Shown here piece after piece: positions 513 to 24,000 of a stretch of 24,000 nt of DNA. This stretch comes from Methanocorpusculum sp. UBA424 (lineage in GTDB: Archaea; Halobacteriota; Methanomicrobia; Methanomicrobiales; Methanocorpusculaceae). A program made the translations under genes and the position numbers. The notes under the pieces were generated by a model. It was not told the origin of the DNA, made no database searches, and saw only the letters and a program-made list of their open reading frames with translations. The stretch covers positions 15,860 through 39,859 of the forward strand of contig DAHC01000002.1 in assembly GCA_002498375.1 (NCBI GenBank). The letters run 5' to 3'. Every line of letters begins with the position of its first letter. Position 1 is the first letter of the stretch.

Positions 513-657
513 GTGAGGATGGAGTGATGGGAACCATCACTCCATCCGAAACGGGGAGCAAATCTTTGATTTGCGACTGCGGGTCGGATGCGAAGCAGAC
601 GACCTAAGCTGAGCAAACCAAAGGTTTGCGACCAAGTGAGGAAATCCCCTCCTCACT
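513..657. repeat. Mosaic hairpin-repeat element, a copy of the family also present at 21.6-22.2 kb
   Basis: Contains a perfect 14-bp stem with a GAA loop (517-547), two GAGCAA-NNC-NNN-GNN-TTGCG hairpins (556-576, 611-631) and an 8-bp stem (635-657). The modules agtgaggat / agcaaatc / gagcaaRccaaaggYttgcg occur in the same order as at 21987-22036. Confidence 0.7.
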
Positions 658-3651: not shown

Positions 3652-3665
3652 TATGCAGAAAATAA

Positions 3666-11333: not shown

Positions 11334-12469
11334 TGAGAATATCTATCAACCCATTTTTTAACGCGAATCATGATTTAATGAAGATTGGCTACATCCCTAC
11401 ACCCTCATCCCCCCCAAAAAAAAGAAAAAATACCCATTATTCCTTGACGTTTTTTTTATTTACACTCTGTTTTGAATCGTTTTCACCTGATAGATATTAT
11501 AACAAAATGCAGCCAGCATATTTTTCACTCGTACTCTTTGCAGCGTTGTTACCTTCACCAACCCTGCATGAAAGATATTTTTGATCACTGCATAGGGTCT
11601 TTCCCCCTTTGATCTCTTCCTGCTTATTCGCATATTTCTGAGTTTATCTCGTATGCTAATGGGATGTCCCCTCGCTCCCCGTTTCATTGTCGCACTATAT
11701 CCCTTGCATTTCGCTCCCTGATATCCCCGATCCCGATAGACCACTTCTCCTTTTTCTGACAGATCCACCTGACTATCATGAACATTTGCCGTGGTGGTTT
11801 CAATGCGTCGAATAAGATCGTGCGTCGTATCCATGATGGTATGAAGTTTATAGCCATAGTGCATTTTGCCGTTCTTGGACATGATTTTTCCATCTTTATC
11901 CCGTCGTGTTTTTGCCTGCTCTCCTCGCGGCGTGTCTTTCTTACAATGACCGGGTTCAGCATACACAAACGTTGCATCCTGGATCATTCCTTTCTCGATT
12001 ATCAACCCTTTTGATTCTAATTGTCGCTGGAATTCTTCCCAAACTAATGTATCAACGCCTGATTCGGACATACGCTCCCGAAATAACCAGATCGTTGAAT
12101 TGTCGGGTATTTTGTCAGGACACCCAAGGAAATGCCAAAAAGAAAGACGATCATAAATTTCACGTTCAACGGCGAGATCAGACAGATTATACCAGACTTC
12201 CAGAAGCTGAATCTTGAACATAAGTATGACATCGACATTGGGATGACCGCCCTTGCCGGATTTATTTGCATACATGGATTCAAGAAGAGGGCGAAACACA
12301 TCCCAATCAAGTGTTTTTCCAACGTCGGAGAGACGGTCGCCAAGTTTTTCATAACGTTCGTGATAGGCCTGGTTGAGACCAAAGCTGCTGAAAGTCCCCA
12401 TACATACTACTCAACGTACGAAAAGAAAGTACTTTCTGTCGAAAAAAAAAAGGTTGTTAGAAATTCTCA
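11334..12469 (-). mobile_element. IS5-family insertion sequence, apparently intact (1136 bp)
   Basis: The terminal inverted repeats are tgagaatatctatcaacc (11334-11351) and ggttgttagaaattctca (12452-12469), matching at 16 of 18 positions. The trinucleotide GTA flanks both ends (11331-11333 and 12470-12472), a possible 3-bp target duplication. A single DDE transposase ORF lies inside. Confidence 0.8.
11460..12401 (-). CDS. IS5-family DDE transposase
   Basis: 313 aa with an ATG start. N-terminal InsH/DUF772-like region (FRPLLESMY...GGHPNVDVILMFKIQLLEVWYNLSDLAVEREIYDRLSFWHFLG). DDE_Tnp_1 region (IQDATFVYA ... YGYKLHTIMD ... VYRDRGYQG ... RSKGERPYAVIKNIF, i.e. the Y-R-E-K signature). Confidence 0.9.
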   Translation of the reverse strand: MGTFSSFGLNQAYHERYEKLGDRLSDVGKTLDWDVFRPLLESMYANKSGKGGHPNVDVILMFKIQLLEVWYNLSDLAVEREIYDRLSFWHFLGCPDKIPDNSTIWLFRERMSESGVDTLVWEEFQRQLESKGLIIEKGMIQDATFVYAEPGHCKKDTPRGEQAKTRRDKDGKIMSKNGKMHYGYKLHTIMDTTHDLIRRIETTTANVHDSQVDLSEKGEVVYRDRGYQGAKCKGYSATMKRGARGHPISIRDKLRNMRISRKRSKGERPYAVIKNIFHAGLVKVTTLQRVRVKNMLAAFCYNIYQVKTIQNRV

Positions 12470-18246: not shown

Positions 18247-18543
18247 TCACGACCGGTCCTGTTCGTTTAGGAGCGGGCCGAGAATATCCTTTACCATGCA
18301 GCTCAAATTGTCAGCTTTCATCAGAGCAAGACAGCAGATGCTGCCGTTTTTCTCCCAGCTGATGAGTGCGAGTTTGTCTCCGTTTCGGATGCCGGCTTTT
18401 TCCCGCACGTCTTTTGGCAGGACCATCTGCCCGCGTTCATCGACGCTGAGTACTGCTTCGATCCGGCAGCCCGTTTCACAACTGCACCCGCAGTCTGAAT
18501 CATTTTTTTGTGATGATGGATCTTCGGTATTTTTTTGGGTCAT
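18247..18543 (-). CDS. Cys-rich AbrB/SpoVT-type DNA-binding protein upstream of hgcA
   Basis: From ATG 18543: MTQKNTEDPSSQKNDSDCGCSCETGC, then a SpoVT/AbrB swapped-hairpin motif (VDERGQMVLPKDVREKAGIRNGDKLAL). The stop lies 11 nt before the hgcA ATG. The longer track ORF (to 18639) runs into the promoter region. Confidence 0.75.
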   Translation of the reverse strand: MTQKNTEDPSSQKNDSDCGCSCETGCRIEAVLSVDERGQMVLPKDVREKAGIRNGDKLALISWEKNGSICCLALMKADNLSCMVKDILGPLLNEQDRS

Positions 18544-20406: not shown

Positions 20407-21555
20407 GTGGGGTGTGTTGAGTTGAGGAGAGAGAATTGGAAATATCTCCAGTTTGAAGATGTTTTTGTGGATGTTTCTAAGAGAGGAAAGAAAATTCCTA
20501 AAAGTGATTATTTGTCCGAAGGACGTTTTCCGATTATAGATCAGGGTCAGAAATATGTTGCTGGATATTCAAATTCATCTGAAAAATTGTATTCAGATGT
20601 TCCTGCGTTGATATTTGGAGACCACACACGCATAATAAAATATGTAGATGTACCTTTCTTCTTGGGTGCAGATGGTGTTAAACTGTTAAAATCTAAATTA
20701 TCCGACGTTGATTATAAATTTCTTTATTATGTCCTCTCCCAATTACACATAATTGACACTGGATATAATCGGCATTTCAAGTATCTAAAGGAACAAATCA
20801 TACCTCTCCCGCCCCTTGACGAGCAGAAGCGGATCGCCGACGTGCTCGACAAAGCGTCTGAGCTGATCAAAAAACGCAAAGAGCAGATCCGGCTGATGGA
20901 CGAGCTTGCGAAAAGCCTCTTCATCGAGATGTTCGGCGACCCGGTGGAGAATCCGATGGGGTGGGATGTAAAAAAATTAGGTGATTTGCTTTCTGATTCT
21001 CCTCAAAATGGATTATATAAACCATCTTCAAGCTATGCAAACGGAGATGAAGGTACCCCAATACTGAGAATAGATGCATTTTATGATGGGAAAATTACTG
21101 ATTTATCTCAATTGAAACGGTTACATTGTAATGAAAATGAGATAATACTCTATAGTTTAGAGGAGGGGGATATTGTTATTAATCGCGTAAATAGTATGGA
21201 ATATCTTGGTAAATGTGCTTACATTCCAGTGCTATGTGAGAGTACTGTTTTTGAATCGAATATGATGAGATTGAAAATACAAAGAGATATTCTCCATCCA
21301 CGATATGCTGTATTCTTATTATGTTCCAAATTTATTCAACAACAAATCATGAGTCATGCAAAAAAAGCGGTGAATCAAGCAAGCATTAATCAGACAGATG
21401 TAATGGATTTTAATTTTCATATTCCCCCCCTCTCCCTCCAAAATGAATTCGCCGACCGTATCAACGTGATCGAACAGCAGAAGGCCCTTTTGCAGAACGG
21501 GCTCGCCAAAATGGAGACCGCGTATAAGGCATTGATGCAGGAATACTTCGGGTGA
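20407..21555 (+). CDS. hsdS: Type I restriction-modification system specificity subunit (two TRDs)
   Basis: 382 aa. There are two variable target-recognition domains. They are separated by conserved helices (IPLPPLDEQKRIADVLDKASELIKKRKEQIRLMDELAKSLFIEMFG) and followed by a similar C-terminal helix (PPLSLQNEFADRINVIEQQKALLQN...). There is no ATG near the start; the candidates are GTG 20407 or TTG 20422. Confidence 0.88.
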   Translation: MGCVELRRENWKYLQFEDVFVDVSKRGKKIPKSDYLSEGRFPIIDQGQKYVAGYSNSSEKLYSDVPALIFGDHTRIIKYVDVPFFLGADGVKLLKSKLSDVDYKFLYYVLSQLHIIDTGYNRHFKYLKEQIIPLPPLDEQKRIADVLDKASELIKKRKEQIRLMDELAKSLFIEMFGDPVENPMGWDVKKLGDLLSDSPQNGLYKPSSSYANGDEGTPILRIDAFYDGKITDLSQLKRLHCNENEIILYSLEEGDIVINRVNSMEYLGKCAYIPVLCESTVFESNMMRLKIQRDILHPRYAVFLLCSKFIQQQIMSHAKKAVNQASINQTDVMDFNFHIPPLSLQNEFADRINVIEQQKALLQNGLAKMETAYKALMQEYFG

Positions 21556-21568: not shown

Positions 21569-21607
21569 AATTCGATTACATGCATGAGAAACCTCTGCCT
21601 TAAAAAA

Positions 21608-21814
21608 TAAAACCAACCGCGAATCGGCGCGAATCCCGCCCTTCGGGCTCCCAGAATCGGATTTGCTGCTCCTCACTCTCGCTCGTTGGGTCTAATCGCA
21701 AGGCAAAGCCTTGCTCAGCTGAGGGCGAGCCTATCGGCTCACCCCGCTCGACCCAACAGCTCGTCCCTTCATCGGGACCGTTCGGGCAAATCCTGTCGGC
21801 GCCCCAGCGCCTCC
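21608..21814 (-). repeat. Structured repeat, copy L (207 bp), left arm of a long inverted repeat
   Basis: It is collinear with the reverse complement of 21909-22064, in three near-identical blocks of about 30, 20 and 55 bp. These are separated by two replaced segments that are themselves hairpins. On the minus strand it ends in T4-A-T6. Confidence 0.85.
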
Positions 21815-21908
21815 TGTGAGCAGGATACTTAATGAGCAGTCCTAAATTTGTAAAATGTGTCCATTTACTGACAATCTTGAGATGGAATGAGAGGAGATAT
21901 TATCGTCG

Positions 21909-22064
21909 GGAGCCGCTGGGGCGGCGACAGGATTTGCCCGAACGCTCCCGATGAAGGGACGAGCAAGACAGCGAAGCTGGATTGCGAGAGTGAGGATAAG
22001 CAAATCCGATTCTGGGAGCAAGCCAAAGGCTTGCGGGATTCGCGCCGATTCGCGGTTGGTTTTT
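21909..22064 (+). repeat. Structured repeat, copy R (156 bp), right arm of the long inverted repeat
   Basis: See copy L. On the plus strand it ends in a T6 tract (22060-22065). Confidence 0.85.
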
Positions 22065-22102
22065 TCTCACGTGTCCACACTTTCCCCTCCTCCTTCCGAA
22101 TT

Positions 22103-22184
22103 GGATTCGCGGCGATTCAAGCGAGGGCTGAAAGCCCGAAGCGGAGAGCAAAGCGAAGCTTTGCGGTTCGCAGTTTGTTTTTTT
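22103..22184 (+). repeat. Rearranged partial third copy of the same repeat family
   Basis: It shares ggattcgcgNcgattc, the gagagcaaagcgaagctttgcgg hairpin module, and the ttcgcRgttNgttttttt end (T7 at 22178-22184), but in a different module order. Confidence 0.65.
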
Positions 22185-22209
22185 CATGAGTCCAAAGCAG
22201 ACCGTTGAT

Positions 22210-22254
22210 CTTCCCGAATCGGGTGACCAGTGACCAGTGATCAGTGATCACCTG
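22210..22254. repeat. Left arm of a 45-bp inverted repeat containing four GTGAYCA heptads
   Basis: The arm reads cttcccgaatcgg-gtgacca-gtgacca-gtgatca-gtgatca-cctg. It matches the reverse complement of 22437-22481 at 40 of 45 positions. Confidence 0.9.
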
Positions 22255-22322
22255 CGAAATGCCGAAAGGAGATGGTAGGGGTAATTCGGATCTCAGCCCT
22301 GTTTCTGCTTTTTGTAATTAGT

Positions 22323-22335
22323 TAAATATATATAC
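22323..22335 (+). promoter_or_regulatory. Strong TATA-like box in the AT-rich core between the heptad repeats
   Basis: The box is taaatatatatac. Its centre is about 26 nt upstream of nt 22352-22356. It could drive a long hsdR leader or the 22352 ORF; orientation is not proven. Confidence 0.35.
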
Positions 22336-22436
22336 TTTTAGAAATAAATAAATGATACAAGAGTGTTTCGGCAGCCAATCTCTCACGAAGGAGAGTGCGG
22401 CTGAAAATATTCCGGGGTATCTTTTTTTCCAAAAGC

Positions 22437-22481
22437 CGGGTGATCACTGGTCACTGGTCACTGATCACACAATTCGGGAAG
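22437..22481. repeat. Right arm of the 45-bp heptad inverted repeat
   Basis: The arm reads cgggtgatcactggtcactggtcactgatcacacaattcgggaag. Confidence 0.9.
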
Positions 22482-22647
22482 GAGTTTGTTGGGAGTGGAG
22501 ATCTCATGTGTCCGCATTTCACCCATACACAAAATCGAAGTACATCTGTCAGTACGTCAGCTATTTCTGTTATGATCACACAGAAAATCATCCCGTTTCG
22601 CCCTATATTTTAAATCATAGCACTCCGATATACTACATAATCAACCC

Positions 22648-24000
22648 ATGACCAGGACCAACTTCGACTACCTTTCAGCAGACCCCGGATTCTCCTCCTT
22701 TTCTGACACCGCGATCTCAGCAGAGAAGATCTACTCAATCGACACCGCCGCCTGTGTCGTAAACTGCAGAAGGGCACTTGAATTTGCCGTCAAATGGTTA
22801 TACTCCGTCGATACATCCCTAAAACTCCCCTATCAGGACAACCTTGCCACCCTCATCAACACCGAAGAATTCAAAAAACTCATCAGCTGCGATTTAAGAA
22901 AACGCATCAGCTTCATCCGGGTCCTTGGAAACAACGCCGCCCACGGCTCAGCCCAATTCACCCCCGACCAGGCGGAACTCGCACTCGAAAATCTCTTCAT
23001 CTTCCTTGACTTCATTGCTTACTGTTACAGTCCGGCCTACAAACCGCGGACCTTTGACCGGACGCTCCTCAAAAATCAGGACACGACCCTCCCTCCTCTC
23101 AAAGAAGAAACGCCCCTCGCCCGGCTCATCAATGAAAACAAACCGCTCAAAAATGAACTCACCGCGAGAAGAACACAACGCGAACCCTCCTACGTAACAA
23201 AACCCCTCGAAATATCAGAATACAAAACCCGGAAAATCTACATCGACACCCAGCTCATCGACGCAGGCTGGGAAAAAGGCAAAGACTGGCTCGACGAATA
23301 TGAACTGCCCGGCATGCCGAACAGCGGCGGAGTAGGATACGCCGACTATGTCCTCTTTGGAGACGACGGCAGACCCCTCGCCCTCATCGAAGCGAAAAAG
23401 ACCTGCAAAGACCCCGCAGTCGGACGTCAGCAGGCAAAACTCTACGCCGACCTCCTCGAACAGAAATTCGGCAAACGGCCCGTCATCTTCCTCACCAACG
23501 GCTTTGAAACCCGGATCTGGAACGACACCAAATACCCTGAACGAAAAGTCTCCGGCATCTACGCAAAACGTGACCTCGAAAAAGAGTTTGCCAAACTCGC
23601 ATTCAGAACCTCCCTTGAAAACATACAGATCAACACATCCATCTCCGGCCGCTACTATCAGATGGAGGCCGTAAAAGCTGTTTGCAGGGCATTTGACACG
23701 GAAAACAGACGAAAAGCCCTCCTCGTCATGGCAACCGGCAGCGGAAAAACGCGAACCGTCATCTCCCTCGTCGACATCCTCATCCGGCACGGCTGGGTAA
23801 AAAACGTCCTCTTCCTTGCCGACAGAAACCTCCTTGTCACCCAGGCAAAACGGTCATTCAATGCACTCCTCCCTGACCTCTCACTCACCAACCTCGGTGA
23901 AGAAAAAGACAGCCTTTCCGCACGGGCAGTCTTTTCCACCTACCAGACAATGATCAACGCCATCGACGATGTCAAAGATGAAAACGGCGGCAGACTATTC
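22648..24000 (+). CDS. hsdR: Type I restriction enzyme R subunit, N-terminal 451 codons (3' end outside the window)
   Basis: This ORF is not in the supplied track because it has no stop in the window; I translated it by hand. From ATG 22648: MTRTNFDYLSADPGF...LRKRISFIRVLGNNAAHG (DUF4145-like N-terminus). Next comes a PD-(D/E)xK nuclease core (GYADYVLFGDDGRPLALIEAKK), then helicase motif I (LLVMATGSGKTRT) and LFLADRNLLVTQA. Confidence 0.9.
   Translation, partial: MTRTNFDYLSADPGFSSFSDTAISAEKIYSIDTAACVVNCRRALEFAVKWLYSVDTSLKLPYQDNLATLINTEEFKKLISCDLRKRISFIRVLGNNAAHGSAQFTPDQAELALENLFIFLDFIAYCYSPAYKPRTFDRTLLKNQDTTLPPLKEETPLARLINENKPLKNELTARRTQREPSYVTKPLEISEYKTRKIYIDTQLIDAGWEKGKDWLDEYELPGMPNSGGVGYADYVLFGDDGRPLALIEAKKTCKDPAVGRQQAKLYADLLEQKFGKRPVIFLTNGFETRIWNDTKYPERKVSGIYAKRDLEKEFAKLAFRTSLENIQINTSISGRYYQMEAVKAVCRAFDTENRRKALLVMATGSGKTRTVISLVDILIRHGWVKNVLFLADRNLLVTQAKRSFNALLPDLSLTNLGEEKDSLSARAVFSTYQTMINAIDDVKDENGGRLF

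Follow-up and report, generated by a model that had tools for sequence, protein, structure and literature searches.

Inverted structured arms between hsdS and hsdR of Methanocorpusculum sp. UBA424: a probable decayed unit of a dispersed mobile repeat family

The window considered here, a 24,000-nucleotide stretch of Methanocorpusculum sp. UBA424 (contig DAHC01000002.1, positions 15,860 to 39,859), comes from a genus important in digesters and animal guts and includes the S gene and the 5' part of the R gene of a type I restriction-modification system. The two genes are separated by a repeat-filled gap of 1.09 kb (1092 nt; Table 1), and the placement between S and R proposed by an earlier note on this DNA, made from the sequence alone, is correct. 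The same hsdS and the same 1092-nt gap are found in two other assemblies, and the full hsdR in locus L240 encodes 1102 aa with DUF4145, HSDR_N, ResIII and EcoEI_R_C domains. Within the gap two inverted arms, L and R, flank a short spacer, and a repeat search recovered the three shared blocks described previously, collinear and at 94-100% identity: 21609-21639 with 22033-22063 (31 nt, 100% complementary), 21647-21682 with 21984-22019 (36 nt, 94%) and 21759-21814 with 21909-21964 (56 nt, 95%). Sequence and fold also agree with the claim that the copies differ by alternative hairpins. The first difference is GCCC-TTC-GGGC in L versus GCAAGCC-TTT-GGCTTGC in R, and the second is a long insert in L closed by the stem GTTGGGTC / GACCCAAC; the module inserted in L has approximately 90 matches in other loci. 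Arm L (fold z = -3.97) has the tail AACCGCGAATCGGCGCGAATCC followed by oligo-T, the ends T4AT6, T6 and T7 are present as the note gave them, and arm R, at 169 bits with nhmmer, is the top-scoring of all arms.

Long inverted repeats can come from assembly errors, and one might regard the pair as such an artefact, or as a chance palindrome or cruciform-forming sequence with no biological meaning. The sequence of the pair is, however, identical in three independent assemblies, its block patterns are confined to these sites in the window where shuffles expect 0 matches, and the hundreds of related copies and the compensatory changes described below likewise speak against an artefact, which we consider vanishingly improbable.

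Table 1. Features in and around the hsdS-hsdR gap, in window coordinates
Feature	Positions	Strand	Basis or remark
hsdS, left neighbour of the repeat-filled gap	20407..21555	+	Pfam Methylase_S, E 2.6e-27
Left-arm outer flank remnant, degenerate (TTCGATTACATGCATGAGAAAC...)	21572..21608	-	By eye against flank A of complete copies
Arm L, long form	21609..21814	-	nhmmer arm profile, 133 bits, model positions 1-155
Arm L hairpin-module block, 57 nt	21693-21749	-	Inside variable hairpin 3 (closing stem 21685-21692 / 21750-21757)
Central spacer, 94 nt	21815..21908	.	'Empty' class; AT-rich, asymmetric, family-conserved
Arm R, short form	21909..22064	+	Near-consensus; T6 end; first row of alignment A2
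Conserved post-tail segment (CTCACGTGTCCACAC...), then flank B-like start (CCTTCCGAATTGGAT)	22065..22102	+	Tail-flank listing
'Third copy', 3' tail arm fragment (GGATTCGCGGCGATTC ... TTCGCAGTTTG + T7)	22103..22186	+	nhmmer model positions 81-155
Flank B-like outer segment (CTTCCCGAATCGG)	22187..22262	+	Inverted repeat, heptamer matches, by-eye flank B comparison
Inverted mirror of 22187..22262: degenerate terminus, heptamers, flank B, no arm	22439..22502	-	Flank B match 22470-22482
Flank A-like segment, no arm (TCTCATGTGTCCGCA...ACACAAAATCGAAGTACATC...GTCAGC)	22503..22600	+	blastn with flank A consensus
Promoter-like box CTATATTTTAAATCATA upstream of hsdR	22603..22619	+	Similar box in L243
hsdR 5' part, runs off the window	22648..24000	+	Translation

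Conserved repeat sequence runs past the oligo-T ends to about position 22600, which the earlier note overlooked. In a tail-flank listing of 174 arms the oligo-T is followed by CTCWTGYGTCCACAC. The rearranged third copy that the note had placed at 22103-22184 is real, but it is merely a 3' tail fragment with two extra inserted hairpin modules, an arrangement that recurs inside a full arm at L240 17229-17300; it has about 38 matches in other loci. In the outer segment that follows it, a run of four GTGAYCA heptamers takes the place of the usual outer part and the terminus is degenerate. Within the inverted mirror of this segment, 22470-22499 matches arm-adjoining sequence in L018 and L108, and the adjacent flank A-like segment (flank A consensus by blastn at 22526-22581, 86%, E 4e-7) matches sequence beside arms in L043 and L044; mirror and flank A-like segment together are an arm-less derivative. 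At the left arm the canonical flank and the outer terminal repeat are absent, and the window holds 0 matches to this terminal repeat at <=3 mismatches, so that the window copy itself lacks the terminal repeats of a miniature element. In a sister strain, the same hsdS stop is followed after 27 nt by an intact terminal repeat and flank B. The window pair is thus probably a decayed empty unit that has kept both arms and the spacer and has lost its outer ends.

We propose, with a probability of roughly three in four, that the pair is one unit of a previously undescribed, high-copy mobile repeat family of Methanocorpusculum. The search for further copies that had been recommended recovered many, dispersed across the genus: the nhmmer arm profile finds at least 241 arms and 84 head-to-head pairs in 625 kb of Methanocorpusculum DNA, and copies lie in unrelated gene contexts in six species-level genomes and in more than 120 metagenome loci, counts that are inflated where a metagenome holds several related strains. 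Long contigs carry several copies each, for instance nine arm matches in 14.5 kb of L146 and two to three arm pairs in each of L129, L195 and L219. The window spacer has about 107 matches in other loci, and 61 of the 84 pairs have spacers of 43-106 nt, most commonly 90-94 nt; the conservation of the spacer in the family was judged by eye from an oriented alignment. Loci L120-L239 were picked by a 24-mer in the arm tail, and the invariance of that 24-mer among them is therefore by construction. A first scan with a 16-mer, a sequence too short for the purpose, gave 119 matches that were mostly chance hits in unrelated bacteria; the six Methanocorpusculum loci alone were real, and a Methanotrichaceae match (L074) had no further similarity and was dropped. 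No family matches were found in viral contigs, a phage collection or a plasmid collection, and we found nothing in the literature on Methanocorpusculum repeats.

The complete copies reveal how such units are bounded. Complete empty copies measure 555-715 bp and carry the outer terminal inverted repeats ATAGGAGTTACGCGGTG / CACCGCGTAACTCCTAT, and the 36 unique complete elements with both ends span 142-714 bp, the shorter of them (142-528 bp) being derivatives that lack arms or have internal deletions. Of these 36, 14 are flanked by a perfect 4-nt duplication, compared with a permutation mean of 1.7 (maximum 7 in 2000), while offset controls give 0-1 and a 5-nt match occurs in just one element. 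The short empty units with outer flanks and 17-nt terminal repeats insert at T-run/A-run sites with this 4-bp duplication, and one pair of occupied and empty sites was found (L193 vs L195 / L131). Miniature inverted-repeat elements (MITEs) are short, non-coding, intergenic sequences of high copy number that are bounded by terminal inverted repeats and duplicate a short stretch of the target. The family's complete copies are MITE-like because of their outer terminal inverted repeats and 4-bp target duplication; they are also short, gene-free, numerous and dispersed. The earlier note, which favoured a pair of RNA genes, had itself named target duplications at other copies as the sign of a MITE, and these are what was found. 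Short empty units that carry their outer flanks and terminal repeats behave as MITEs. Compared, from general knowledge, with the Correia elements of Neisseria, pneumococcal BOX and RUP and enterobacterial ERIC, the family is alike in its modular mosaic copies that decay in place, its predicted stable RNA hairpins and predicted terminator-like effects on neighbouring genes. It differs in that each end carries several helices over 150-210 nt, which covary and show strand-specific G·U pairs and go well beyond a repeat that a transposase would bind, in that the centre is an exchangeable slot, and in that the 625 kb yielded no parent insertion sequence sharing these ends. Nor did the 625 kb contain a terminal-repeat pair enclosing a transposase-like ORF; candidates for a parent transposase among cargo, multi-copy ORFs and neighbouring genes were likewise rejected, as was the IS5-like gene of the window, the ends of which differ from those of the family.

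The family's distribution bears directly on whether the element belongs to the restriction locus. One could imagine an element specific to this type I system, for instance a terminator, attenuator or antisense regulator of the hsdR:hsdMS ratio: it sits between hsdS and hsdR, the T6 ending arm R would stop read-through, and the sister strain also has an element directly after hsdS. However, the same element adjoins uppS, htpX, mfnA, fdhD, acyl-CoA synthetase genes and others, the homologous restriction-modification loci L243 and L244 have accessory genes in the hsdS-hsdR gap and no element, and hsdR has a promoter-like box of its own, with a similar box, AATATTTAAATCATA, at a comparable distance before the homologous hsdR of L243. 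This distribution disfavours an element dedicated to restriction, an idea to which we give very little credence. Rather than two unique genes linked to restriction, the arms are the halves of a single unit, and its family is dispersed over many unrelated loci; the suggestion in the earlier note of a link to defence was right for the family, which carries defence genes as cargo, and the position between hsdS and hsdR is incidental. Synteny of the window with L145 / L199 ends at window position 3659, and no empty site for the window element was found. The box upstream of hsdR suggests that this gene may be transcribed on its own; hsdR would then be expressed from that box, and the window copy would probably have little role except to stop hsdMS transcription at the T6 of arm R.

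The slot between the arms differs in content from copy to copy. It may hold a 57-nt or 92-nt spacer, a nuclease gene or a single anti-phage defence gene; among the genes held are Kiwa, Dsr1, dGTPase, PDC-S06, PDC-S31 and other defence genes, and whatever the content, it joins the arm precisely at (G)GAGSCGC. The nuclease gene is a clear member of the GxxExxY family (E 5e-39; TIGR04256, Pfam PF13366 PDDEXK_3), and all GxxExxY genes in our loci, more than 20 in number, are enclosed by arm heads, each with its stop codon abutting an arm. Content also changes at a given site: L145 and L204, from two strains, differ in content at the same site, and L146 3211-4064 matches L178 2756-1908 and L221 904-1716 in reverse relative to the flanks, which are collinear, so that the family includes invertible segments; for the window copy no such inversion was seen. 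An outer terminal repeat was seen in four of 22 gene-carrying pairs, on one side only, many such pairs lying at contig ends. The 57-nt and 92-nt spacers share with the GxxExxY cassette short AT-rich matches only; a derivation as remnants of a deleted cassette was rejected on this ground, and since no likeness is detectable the 'empty' forms are not simple deletion products. A fixed association of hairpin type with one side of the spacer was also rejected (L,R 12; R,L 9; L,L 8), the mixed order being explained by inversion.

In a unit, two inverted arms of about 155-210 nt face the central slot with their heads and point outwards with their oligo-T tails. In the presumed parental form the slot would hold the 150-aa GxxExxY (PD-(D/E)XK_3) nuclease gene with its stop touching an arm head. 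As there is no room for a terminator between stop and arm, the arm would serve as a structured 3' UTR ending at its own oligo-T. Being long inverted repeats, the arms allow the enclosed segment to flip, as it does between strains, and either arm can therefore take this part; exchange of contents would most likely proceed by recombination between conserved arms of different copies.

Alternatively, the arms might be DNA-level recombination sites of a dedicated cassette system, in which the GxxExxY nuclease (or another enzyme) would recognise both the folded arms and their short tandem sub-repeats and cut at the arm heads, genes would be captured, swapped and inverted, and the conserved fold would be a single-stranded DNA or protein-binding feature instead of an RNA. 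The fixed (G)GAGSCGC junction and the exchange and inversion of content between strains are compatible with such a system, as are the arm tail and the flanks of short tandem sub-repeats, which resemble the surroundings of bacterial and phage GxxExxY genes, and a confident model of the nuclease (pLDDT 93.7) with a minimal Cas4 / lambda-exonuclease-like PD-(D/E)XK core. On the other hand, ordinary homologous recombination of 150-nt arms at about 90% identity accounts for inversion and swapping with no need of a dedicated enzyme, a nuclease gene is missing from most pairs, and the two arms draw on opposite strands of the DNA, which sets them apart from single-strand transposition systems. In a cruciform G·T and A·C should be disfavoured alike, whereas the asymmetry observed is 79 to 5. 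We regard a dedicated cassette system as conceivable but rather unlikely.

That asymmetry comes from the arms themselves, which are conserved and structured as the earlier note had claimed, with a secondary structure that shows compensatory substitutions. Across the 28 base pairs of the arm 99.4% of cells are paired, versus 97.5 ± 0.2% in shuffles and 26-47% in slid controls, and five base pairs show compensatory changes, a number reached by 0 of 500 shuffles; at base pair 8/19, for instance, GC (60) and CG (58) are almost equally common. Two variable hairpins occur in 46 and 47 sequence variants, nearly all of which fold, so that pairing is kept across unrelated sequences; these were scored sequence by sequence because pairing registers differ between hairpin types, and a single consensus was dropped for that reason. 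Variable cells contain 79 G·U versus five A·C, a count of cells and not of independent events, and two G·U pairs are invariant; moreover, for 119 of 120 arms folding favours the sense strand. The wobble-pair asymmetry and the folding energies assign the fold to the outward-reading strand that ends in oligo-T, which fits an RNA. No Rfam model covers this structured archaeal element of about 150 nt, hitherto undescribed and marked by clear covariation and strand asymmetry: the whole window gave no match at the gathering thresholds, and at E up to 10 there were just two chance-level matches, both outside the arms.

Whether the two arms are then independent, divergently transcribed small RNA genes acting in trans in regulation or defence, with a bidirectional promoter in the spacer and oligo-T ends, is a separate question. 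The strand-specific structure ending in oligo-T accords with this, as do the AT-rich box conserved in the spacer (taaatttgtaaaat, 21843-21856), about 18 solo arms with a conserved A/T-rich leader of their own just before the arm head, and the approximately 94% conservation of arms in decayed copies such as the window's. The hundreds of copies with target duplications, however, behave as mobile DNA, genes replace the spacer wholesale in other copies, so that no promoter there can be obligatory, and Rfam offers no match. The TATA-like element reported at about 26 nt from the inner end of copy L is loosely conserved and centred at about 35 nt, and no convincing archaeal promoter for the suggested divergent transcription was found in the spacer; the box and the solo-arm leader are only suggestive as candidates for separate small RNA promoters. 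We consider such a gene pair unlikely. An arm has a firm route into a transcript only as a 3' UTR, downstream of a gene enclosed by the pair, and the window copy encloses none. RNA expression of any arm is a prediction.

For the mobile unit favoured here, the GxxExxY gene offers a further lead. Its family, PDDEXK_3, is listed as of function unknown in a survey of PD-(D/E)XK proteins (PMC3424549); we found nothing on GxxExxY function in the literature, no relative in the PDB by sequence, and by fold search a generic PD-(D/E)XK likeness to Cas4 and lambda exonuclease. GxxExxY genes of two bacterial and four phage loci sit between inverted repeats that are only about 16-35 nt long and built of short tandem sub-repeats. 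The Methanocorpusculum family likewise has the gene flanked by inverted repeats of sub-repeats, with the difference that a large structured arm separates the gene from a GTCCAC + CACGAA-type repeat; since the window copy has arms and flank motifs and no gene, it is at most a derivative. We tentatively speculate that a widespread and as yet unrecognised class of nuclease-driven mini-elements may have, in the arm pairs, its elaborated archaeal form, in which GxxExxY acts on its own iteron-like inverted repeats. In Methanocorpusculum these would have become a cassette platform, with arms (as RNA and/or DNA) that bound a slot where Kiwa, Dsr1, dGTPase, PDC-S06, PDC-S31 and the like are captured, swapped, inverted and insulated by terminators, and with MITE-like empty copies, the window's included, that seed new slots. 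GxxExxY / PDDEXK_3 is a large family in bacteria, archaea and viruses with no listed function, and our observations suggest that it may be the resident nuclease of small mobile elements with inverted repeats as their boundaries.

Several known systems resemble the family in part. Mobile insertion cassettes, such as MIC231 of Bacillus cereus, hold passenger genes within inverted repeats and no transposase, and here too transposase-free inverted repeats enclose genes unrelated to transposition; in contrast, the gene-carrying arm pairs mostly lack outer terminal repeats showing target duplications, one site shows an exchange of cargo while the arms stay in place, and the cargo consists mainly of anti-phage defence genes. 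Integron cassettes, which in some integrons include single defence genes, are comparable as promoter-poor single-gene units bounded by a recombination site, attC, whose structure is conserved over its sequence. The arms of Methanocorpusculum are, however, inverted and not direct, 150-210 nt long with several helices, and the elements are dispersed singly and not in arrays; no integrase was found among cargo or neighbours, and no attI was seen. As with invertons and shufflons, a segment between inverted repeats occurs in both orientations in related strains; here no invertase gene lies nearby, the length of the repeats suffices for homologous recombination, and no on/off logic is evident because a whole gene with its own promoter-like box flips. 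In this archaeon, conserved arms appear to permit the exchange, loss or flipping of single defence genes at fixed sites, an outcome comparable to integron cassettes or defence hotspots in bacteria.

A practical point concerns annotation. The ORFs in the window copy are repeat artefacts only, as the earlier note had held, and the same is true of ORFs called across other copies of the repeat. Contigs of Methanocorpusculum also tend to break at copies of this repeat.

The inverted pair between hsdS and hsdR belongs to a mobile, MITE-like family rather than being the private pair of small RNA genes that the earlier note had proposed. Much of what that note saw in the pair itself was borne out: a repeat search of the window recovered the three shared inverted blocks, collinear between the long-form arm L and the short-form arm R, with no further occurrence in the 24-kb window and zero matches in shuffles; the two places of divergence are indeed alternative hairpins, the long insert of arm L being closed by the stem GTTGGGTC / GACCCAAC; all three copies end in oligo-T; and the location between the two genes, a 1092-nt gap, was correct. 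The AT-rich box taaatttgtaaaat had been misplaced: about 35 nt separate its centre from the end of copy L, against the 26 nt given. Rfam and tRNA scans of the window, the first of which had been suggested, were empty. Assignment of the window to Methanocorpusculum is based on gene content (CdhD, DUF2070) and later sequence matches.

The search for more copies, likewise suggested, was productive. A first search, with a pattern that was too short, gave genuine copies (75-95% identity) in six Methanocorpusculum species-level genomes, in unrelated contexts adjoining uppS-like, htpX-like, mfnA-like and acyl-CoA synthetase genes. A 24-mer of the arm tail matched at least 120 metagenome loci and zero viral contigs, and an arm profile search of 625 kb of collected loci yielded at least 241 arm matches, among them at least 84 head-to-head pairs with tails outward; because the metagenome loci were picked by this 24-mer and include several related strains, copy numbers are inflated and the tail is invariant by construction. 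About 18 unpaired arms (e.g., those of loci L003, L123, L144, L166 and L226) carry, immediately ahead of the head, a conserved A/T-rich leader (ACCCCRAAATATAACCAAAAAATATCCATTTATCCTTAYGG), which may be a promoter of an arm RNA. Another solo arm, of about 300 nt and swollen by several inserted hairpin modules, stands about 8 kb beyond the window in the same genome (L240); its neighbours are a gene for a 4HBT thioesterase and a large gene with a SACS domain.

Similarity among copies extends past the oligo-T: each tail is followed by CTCWTGYGTCCACAC and then by one of two types of outer sequence, flank A or flank B, and complete copies terminate in CACCGCGTAACTCCTAT, mirrored on the opposite side. 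Elements with both ends measure 142-714 bp; standard empty units among them have 555-714 bp. A perfect 4-nt direct repeat flanks 14 of the 36 unique both-end elements (permutation mean 1.7, maximum 7; offset controls 0-1) and a 5-nt match one of the 36; in one occupied/empty site pair TTAT is duplicated, and insertion sites are T-run / A-run junctions. These terminal repeats and 4-nt duplications are the hallmarks of a MITE, which the earlier note had named among its alternatives. No transposase with the family's terminal repeats was found among multi-copy ORFs and neighbouring genes in the 625 kb of loci. The window's own IS5-like transposase gene (DDE_Tnp_1 + DUF772), which lies in a low-GC stretch just after the point (11226) where synteny with a related contig, L199, stops, was rejected for this role since its ends differ from those of the repeat family.

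The RNA-like fold had been guessed correctly, as indicated by covarying pairs and strand asymmetry in an alignment of 120 distinct short arms. The RNAalifold consensus of 28 pairs, from which the doubtful pair 4/23 was left out, is 99.4% paired, as compared to 97.5 ± 0.2% in shuffles and 26-47% in slid controls; compensatory changes occur in five pairs, and at pair 8/19, 60 rows have GC, 58 have CG and 2 are broken. At two further hairpin positions the sequence is freely replaced (the 46 and 47 variants fall into several unrelated types, and nearly all fold), and L and R of the window differ by two such replacements. In long arms, extra small GCAA...TTGC hairpin modules sit within the loop of hairpin 3. 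Because G·U greatly exceeds A·C (79 to 5, counted as cells and not as independent events, with two pairs invariant G·U) and in 119 of 120 arms the sense strand forms the more stable fold (-60.7 vs -52.3 kcal/mol for the complement), the structure is that of the strand running outward, from centre to oligo-T. Such asymmetry would be expected of an RNA, unlike a cruciform. We note that an intergenic run of small GCAAnnn-loop-nnnTTGC modules elsewhere in the window (GAGCAAATCTTTGATTTGC, GGGTCGGATGCGAAGCAGACGACC, GAGCAAACCAAAGGTTTGC) is of the same kind as the inserts of arm L and of the third copy; these modules recur beside arms in many loci and may be a mobile mini-hairpin family in their own right.

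In 61 of the 84 pairs the arms are separated by a short spacer of one of two classes, about 57 nt or about 92 nt long, the window's 94-nt spacer being of the longer class. Twelve pairs enclose a 150-aa GxxExxY gene of the PD-(D/E)XK_3 nuclease family (PF13366, E 2e-38; TIGR04256, E 5e-39), and ten have other cargo: KwaA + KwaB, Dsr1 (1290 bits), a defence dGTPase, PDC-S06 / AAA_13, PDC-S31 / DUF2971, a DUF4062 protein, an Upx-like protein and one unknown. Cargo takes the place of the spacer completely, the junction always being (G)GAGSCGC, and outer terminal repeats are mostly absent from gene-carrying pairs. All GxxExxY genes in the collected loci, including Mlab_1033 of M. labreanum Z, lie between arm heads, with a TATA-like box ahead of the start and a stop codon abutting one arm, so that this arm would form the 3' UTR of the gene. 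Locus L151 has a tandem duplication of 294-nt period between a full GxxExxY gene and a full arm, its unit joining a 3' fragment of the gene to the initial 42 nt of an arm head.

At one orthologous locus with collinear flanks the arm-bounded segment is reversed in L178 and L221 relative to L146, and because this segment inverts, the hairpin types of oriented pairs are not tied to one side of the spacer. Loci L145 and L204, collinear on both flanks, hold at the same site a 2027-nt gene cassette and a 57-nt spacer, respectively, for which reason the arms are the fixed borders of a slot with changing content; L120 and L135 differ in the same way on the one flank available. Slot content is most likely exchanged through recombination between conserved arms of different copies, this being the simplest mechanism. 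MITEs, passenger cassettes and invertible segments are already known; what appears to be new is the large, covarying module that forms the arm, its association with GxxExxY nuclease genes and its use as an exchangeable defence-gene slot in an archaeon.

A terminal-repeat search of the window found none of the terminal repeats of complete elements at its own copy, which is truncated on the left against hsdS (hsdM lying upstream) and continues on the right into an arm-tail fragment, a flank B segment bearing GTGAYCA heptamers, and a unit that lacks arms. The central unit, though it cannot move, is intact, and its arm R has the top score among all arms. The unit's likely effect would be on hsdMS transcripts, which would stop at the T6 of arm R. 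In a sister strain (HsdM 93% identical) an intact terminal repeat and flank follow the same hsdS stop codon. The gap is a tolerated landing place, since related type I R-M loci (L243 and L244, HsdM 75-77% identical) carry three or four accessory genes there and the promoter-like box before hsdR is similar in the window and L243; the window's gap contains repeat debris only. The heptamers stand where flank B normally has its outer part; none of the other copies examined showed them. A Schlafen / AlbA_2 gene of L243 sits between hsdM and hsdS, and no toxin partner was called adjacent to the window's MazE-like gene.

Features of the window and of compared loci
Feature	Sequence	Position (strand)	Remark
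Hairpin-module run	window	548-622	intergenic
IS5-like transposase gene	window	11460-12401 (-)	
MazE-like antitoxin gene	window	18247-18543 (-)	98 aa; directly upstream of hsdM; weak Pfam match
hsdS	window	20407-21555	left border of gap
Arm L	window	21609-21814 (-)	
Arm R	window	21909-22064 (+)	
Inverted block 1	window	21609-21639 / 22033-22063	31 nt, 100% complementary
Inverted block 2	window	21647-21682 / 21984-22019	36 nt, 94%
Inverted block 3	window	21759-21814 / 21909-21964	56 nt, 95%
AT-rich box	window	21843-21856	
Third copy	window	22103-22186 (+)	arm-tail fragment
Heptamers GTGACCA / GTGATCA	window	22223-22250 and 22441-22468	four in tandem per side; 43-nt inverted pair
Further repeated segment	window	22320-22430	5 matches (76-86%) in other Methanocorpusculum loci (L216, L197, L189, L167, L232); hairpin CAGCC...GGCTG; sole Rfam signal a chance-level DnaX frameshift match (E 1.2)
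Arm-less flank B / flank A unit	window	22439-22600	right part of gap
hsdR	window	from 22648	right border of gap
Accessory genes of hsdS-hsdR gap	L243; L244	7159-10017; 10815-14465	DUF4238, AAA_15 / AAA_21 ATPase, unknowns
Solo arm with A/T-rich leader	L003	3765-3805	
Solo arm, swollen	L240	17229-17529	
Tandem duplication	L151	1951-3142	
GxxExxY loci of phage contigs	L248, L250, L251	~1000-1660	IMG/VR

The GxxExxY family is listed as of unknown function in a PD-(D/E)XK survey (PMC3424549). The confident model of the protein (pLDDT 93.7) is a minimal PD-(D/E)XK core, nearest in a fold search to Cas4 SSO0001 and lambda exonuclease; a sequence search found no relative of solved structure. Around two bacterial GxxExxY genes lie inverted repeats that consist of GTCCAC and three CACGAA(T/G) units, and Methanocorpusculum flank A has the same build just past the arm tail, GTGTCCACACGAAT...ACACGAAT...ACACGAAATCGAAG. 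Phage contigs contributed five loci, including two near-duplicates. In all four examined, the gene lies inside the best local inverted repeat, which has two or three sub-repeats of 8-10 nt; their sequence varies from locus to locus, and one, AACCGCGAAAAGCGCTAAAATCGCGAAAG, is similar to AACCGCGAATCGGCGCGAATCC of the arm tail. As a lead from six loci examined, the sub-repeats may be iteron-like putative binding sites co-varying with the GxxExxY protein. The three phage contigs of the table are homologous, with the gene at the same intergenic site, and their flanking sub-repeat motifs (ACCAGATGAACC, CAAATGAAAC and CGCAGAAA, respectively) differ as if co-varying with the protein.
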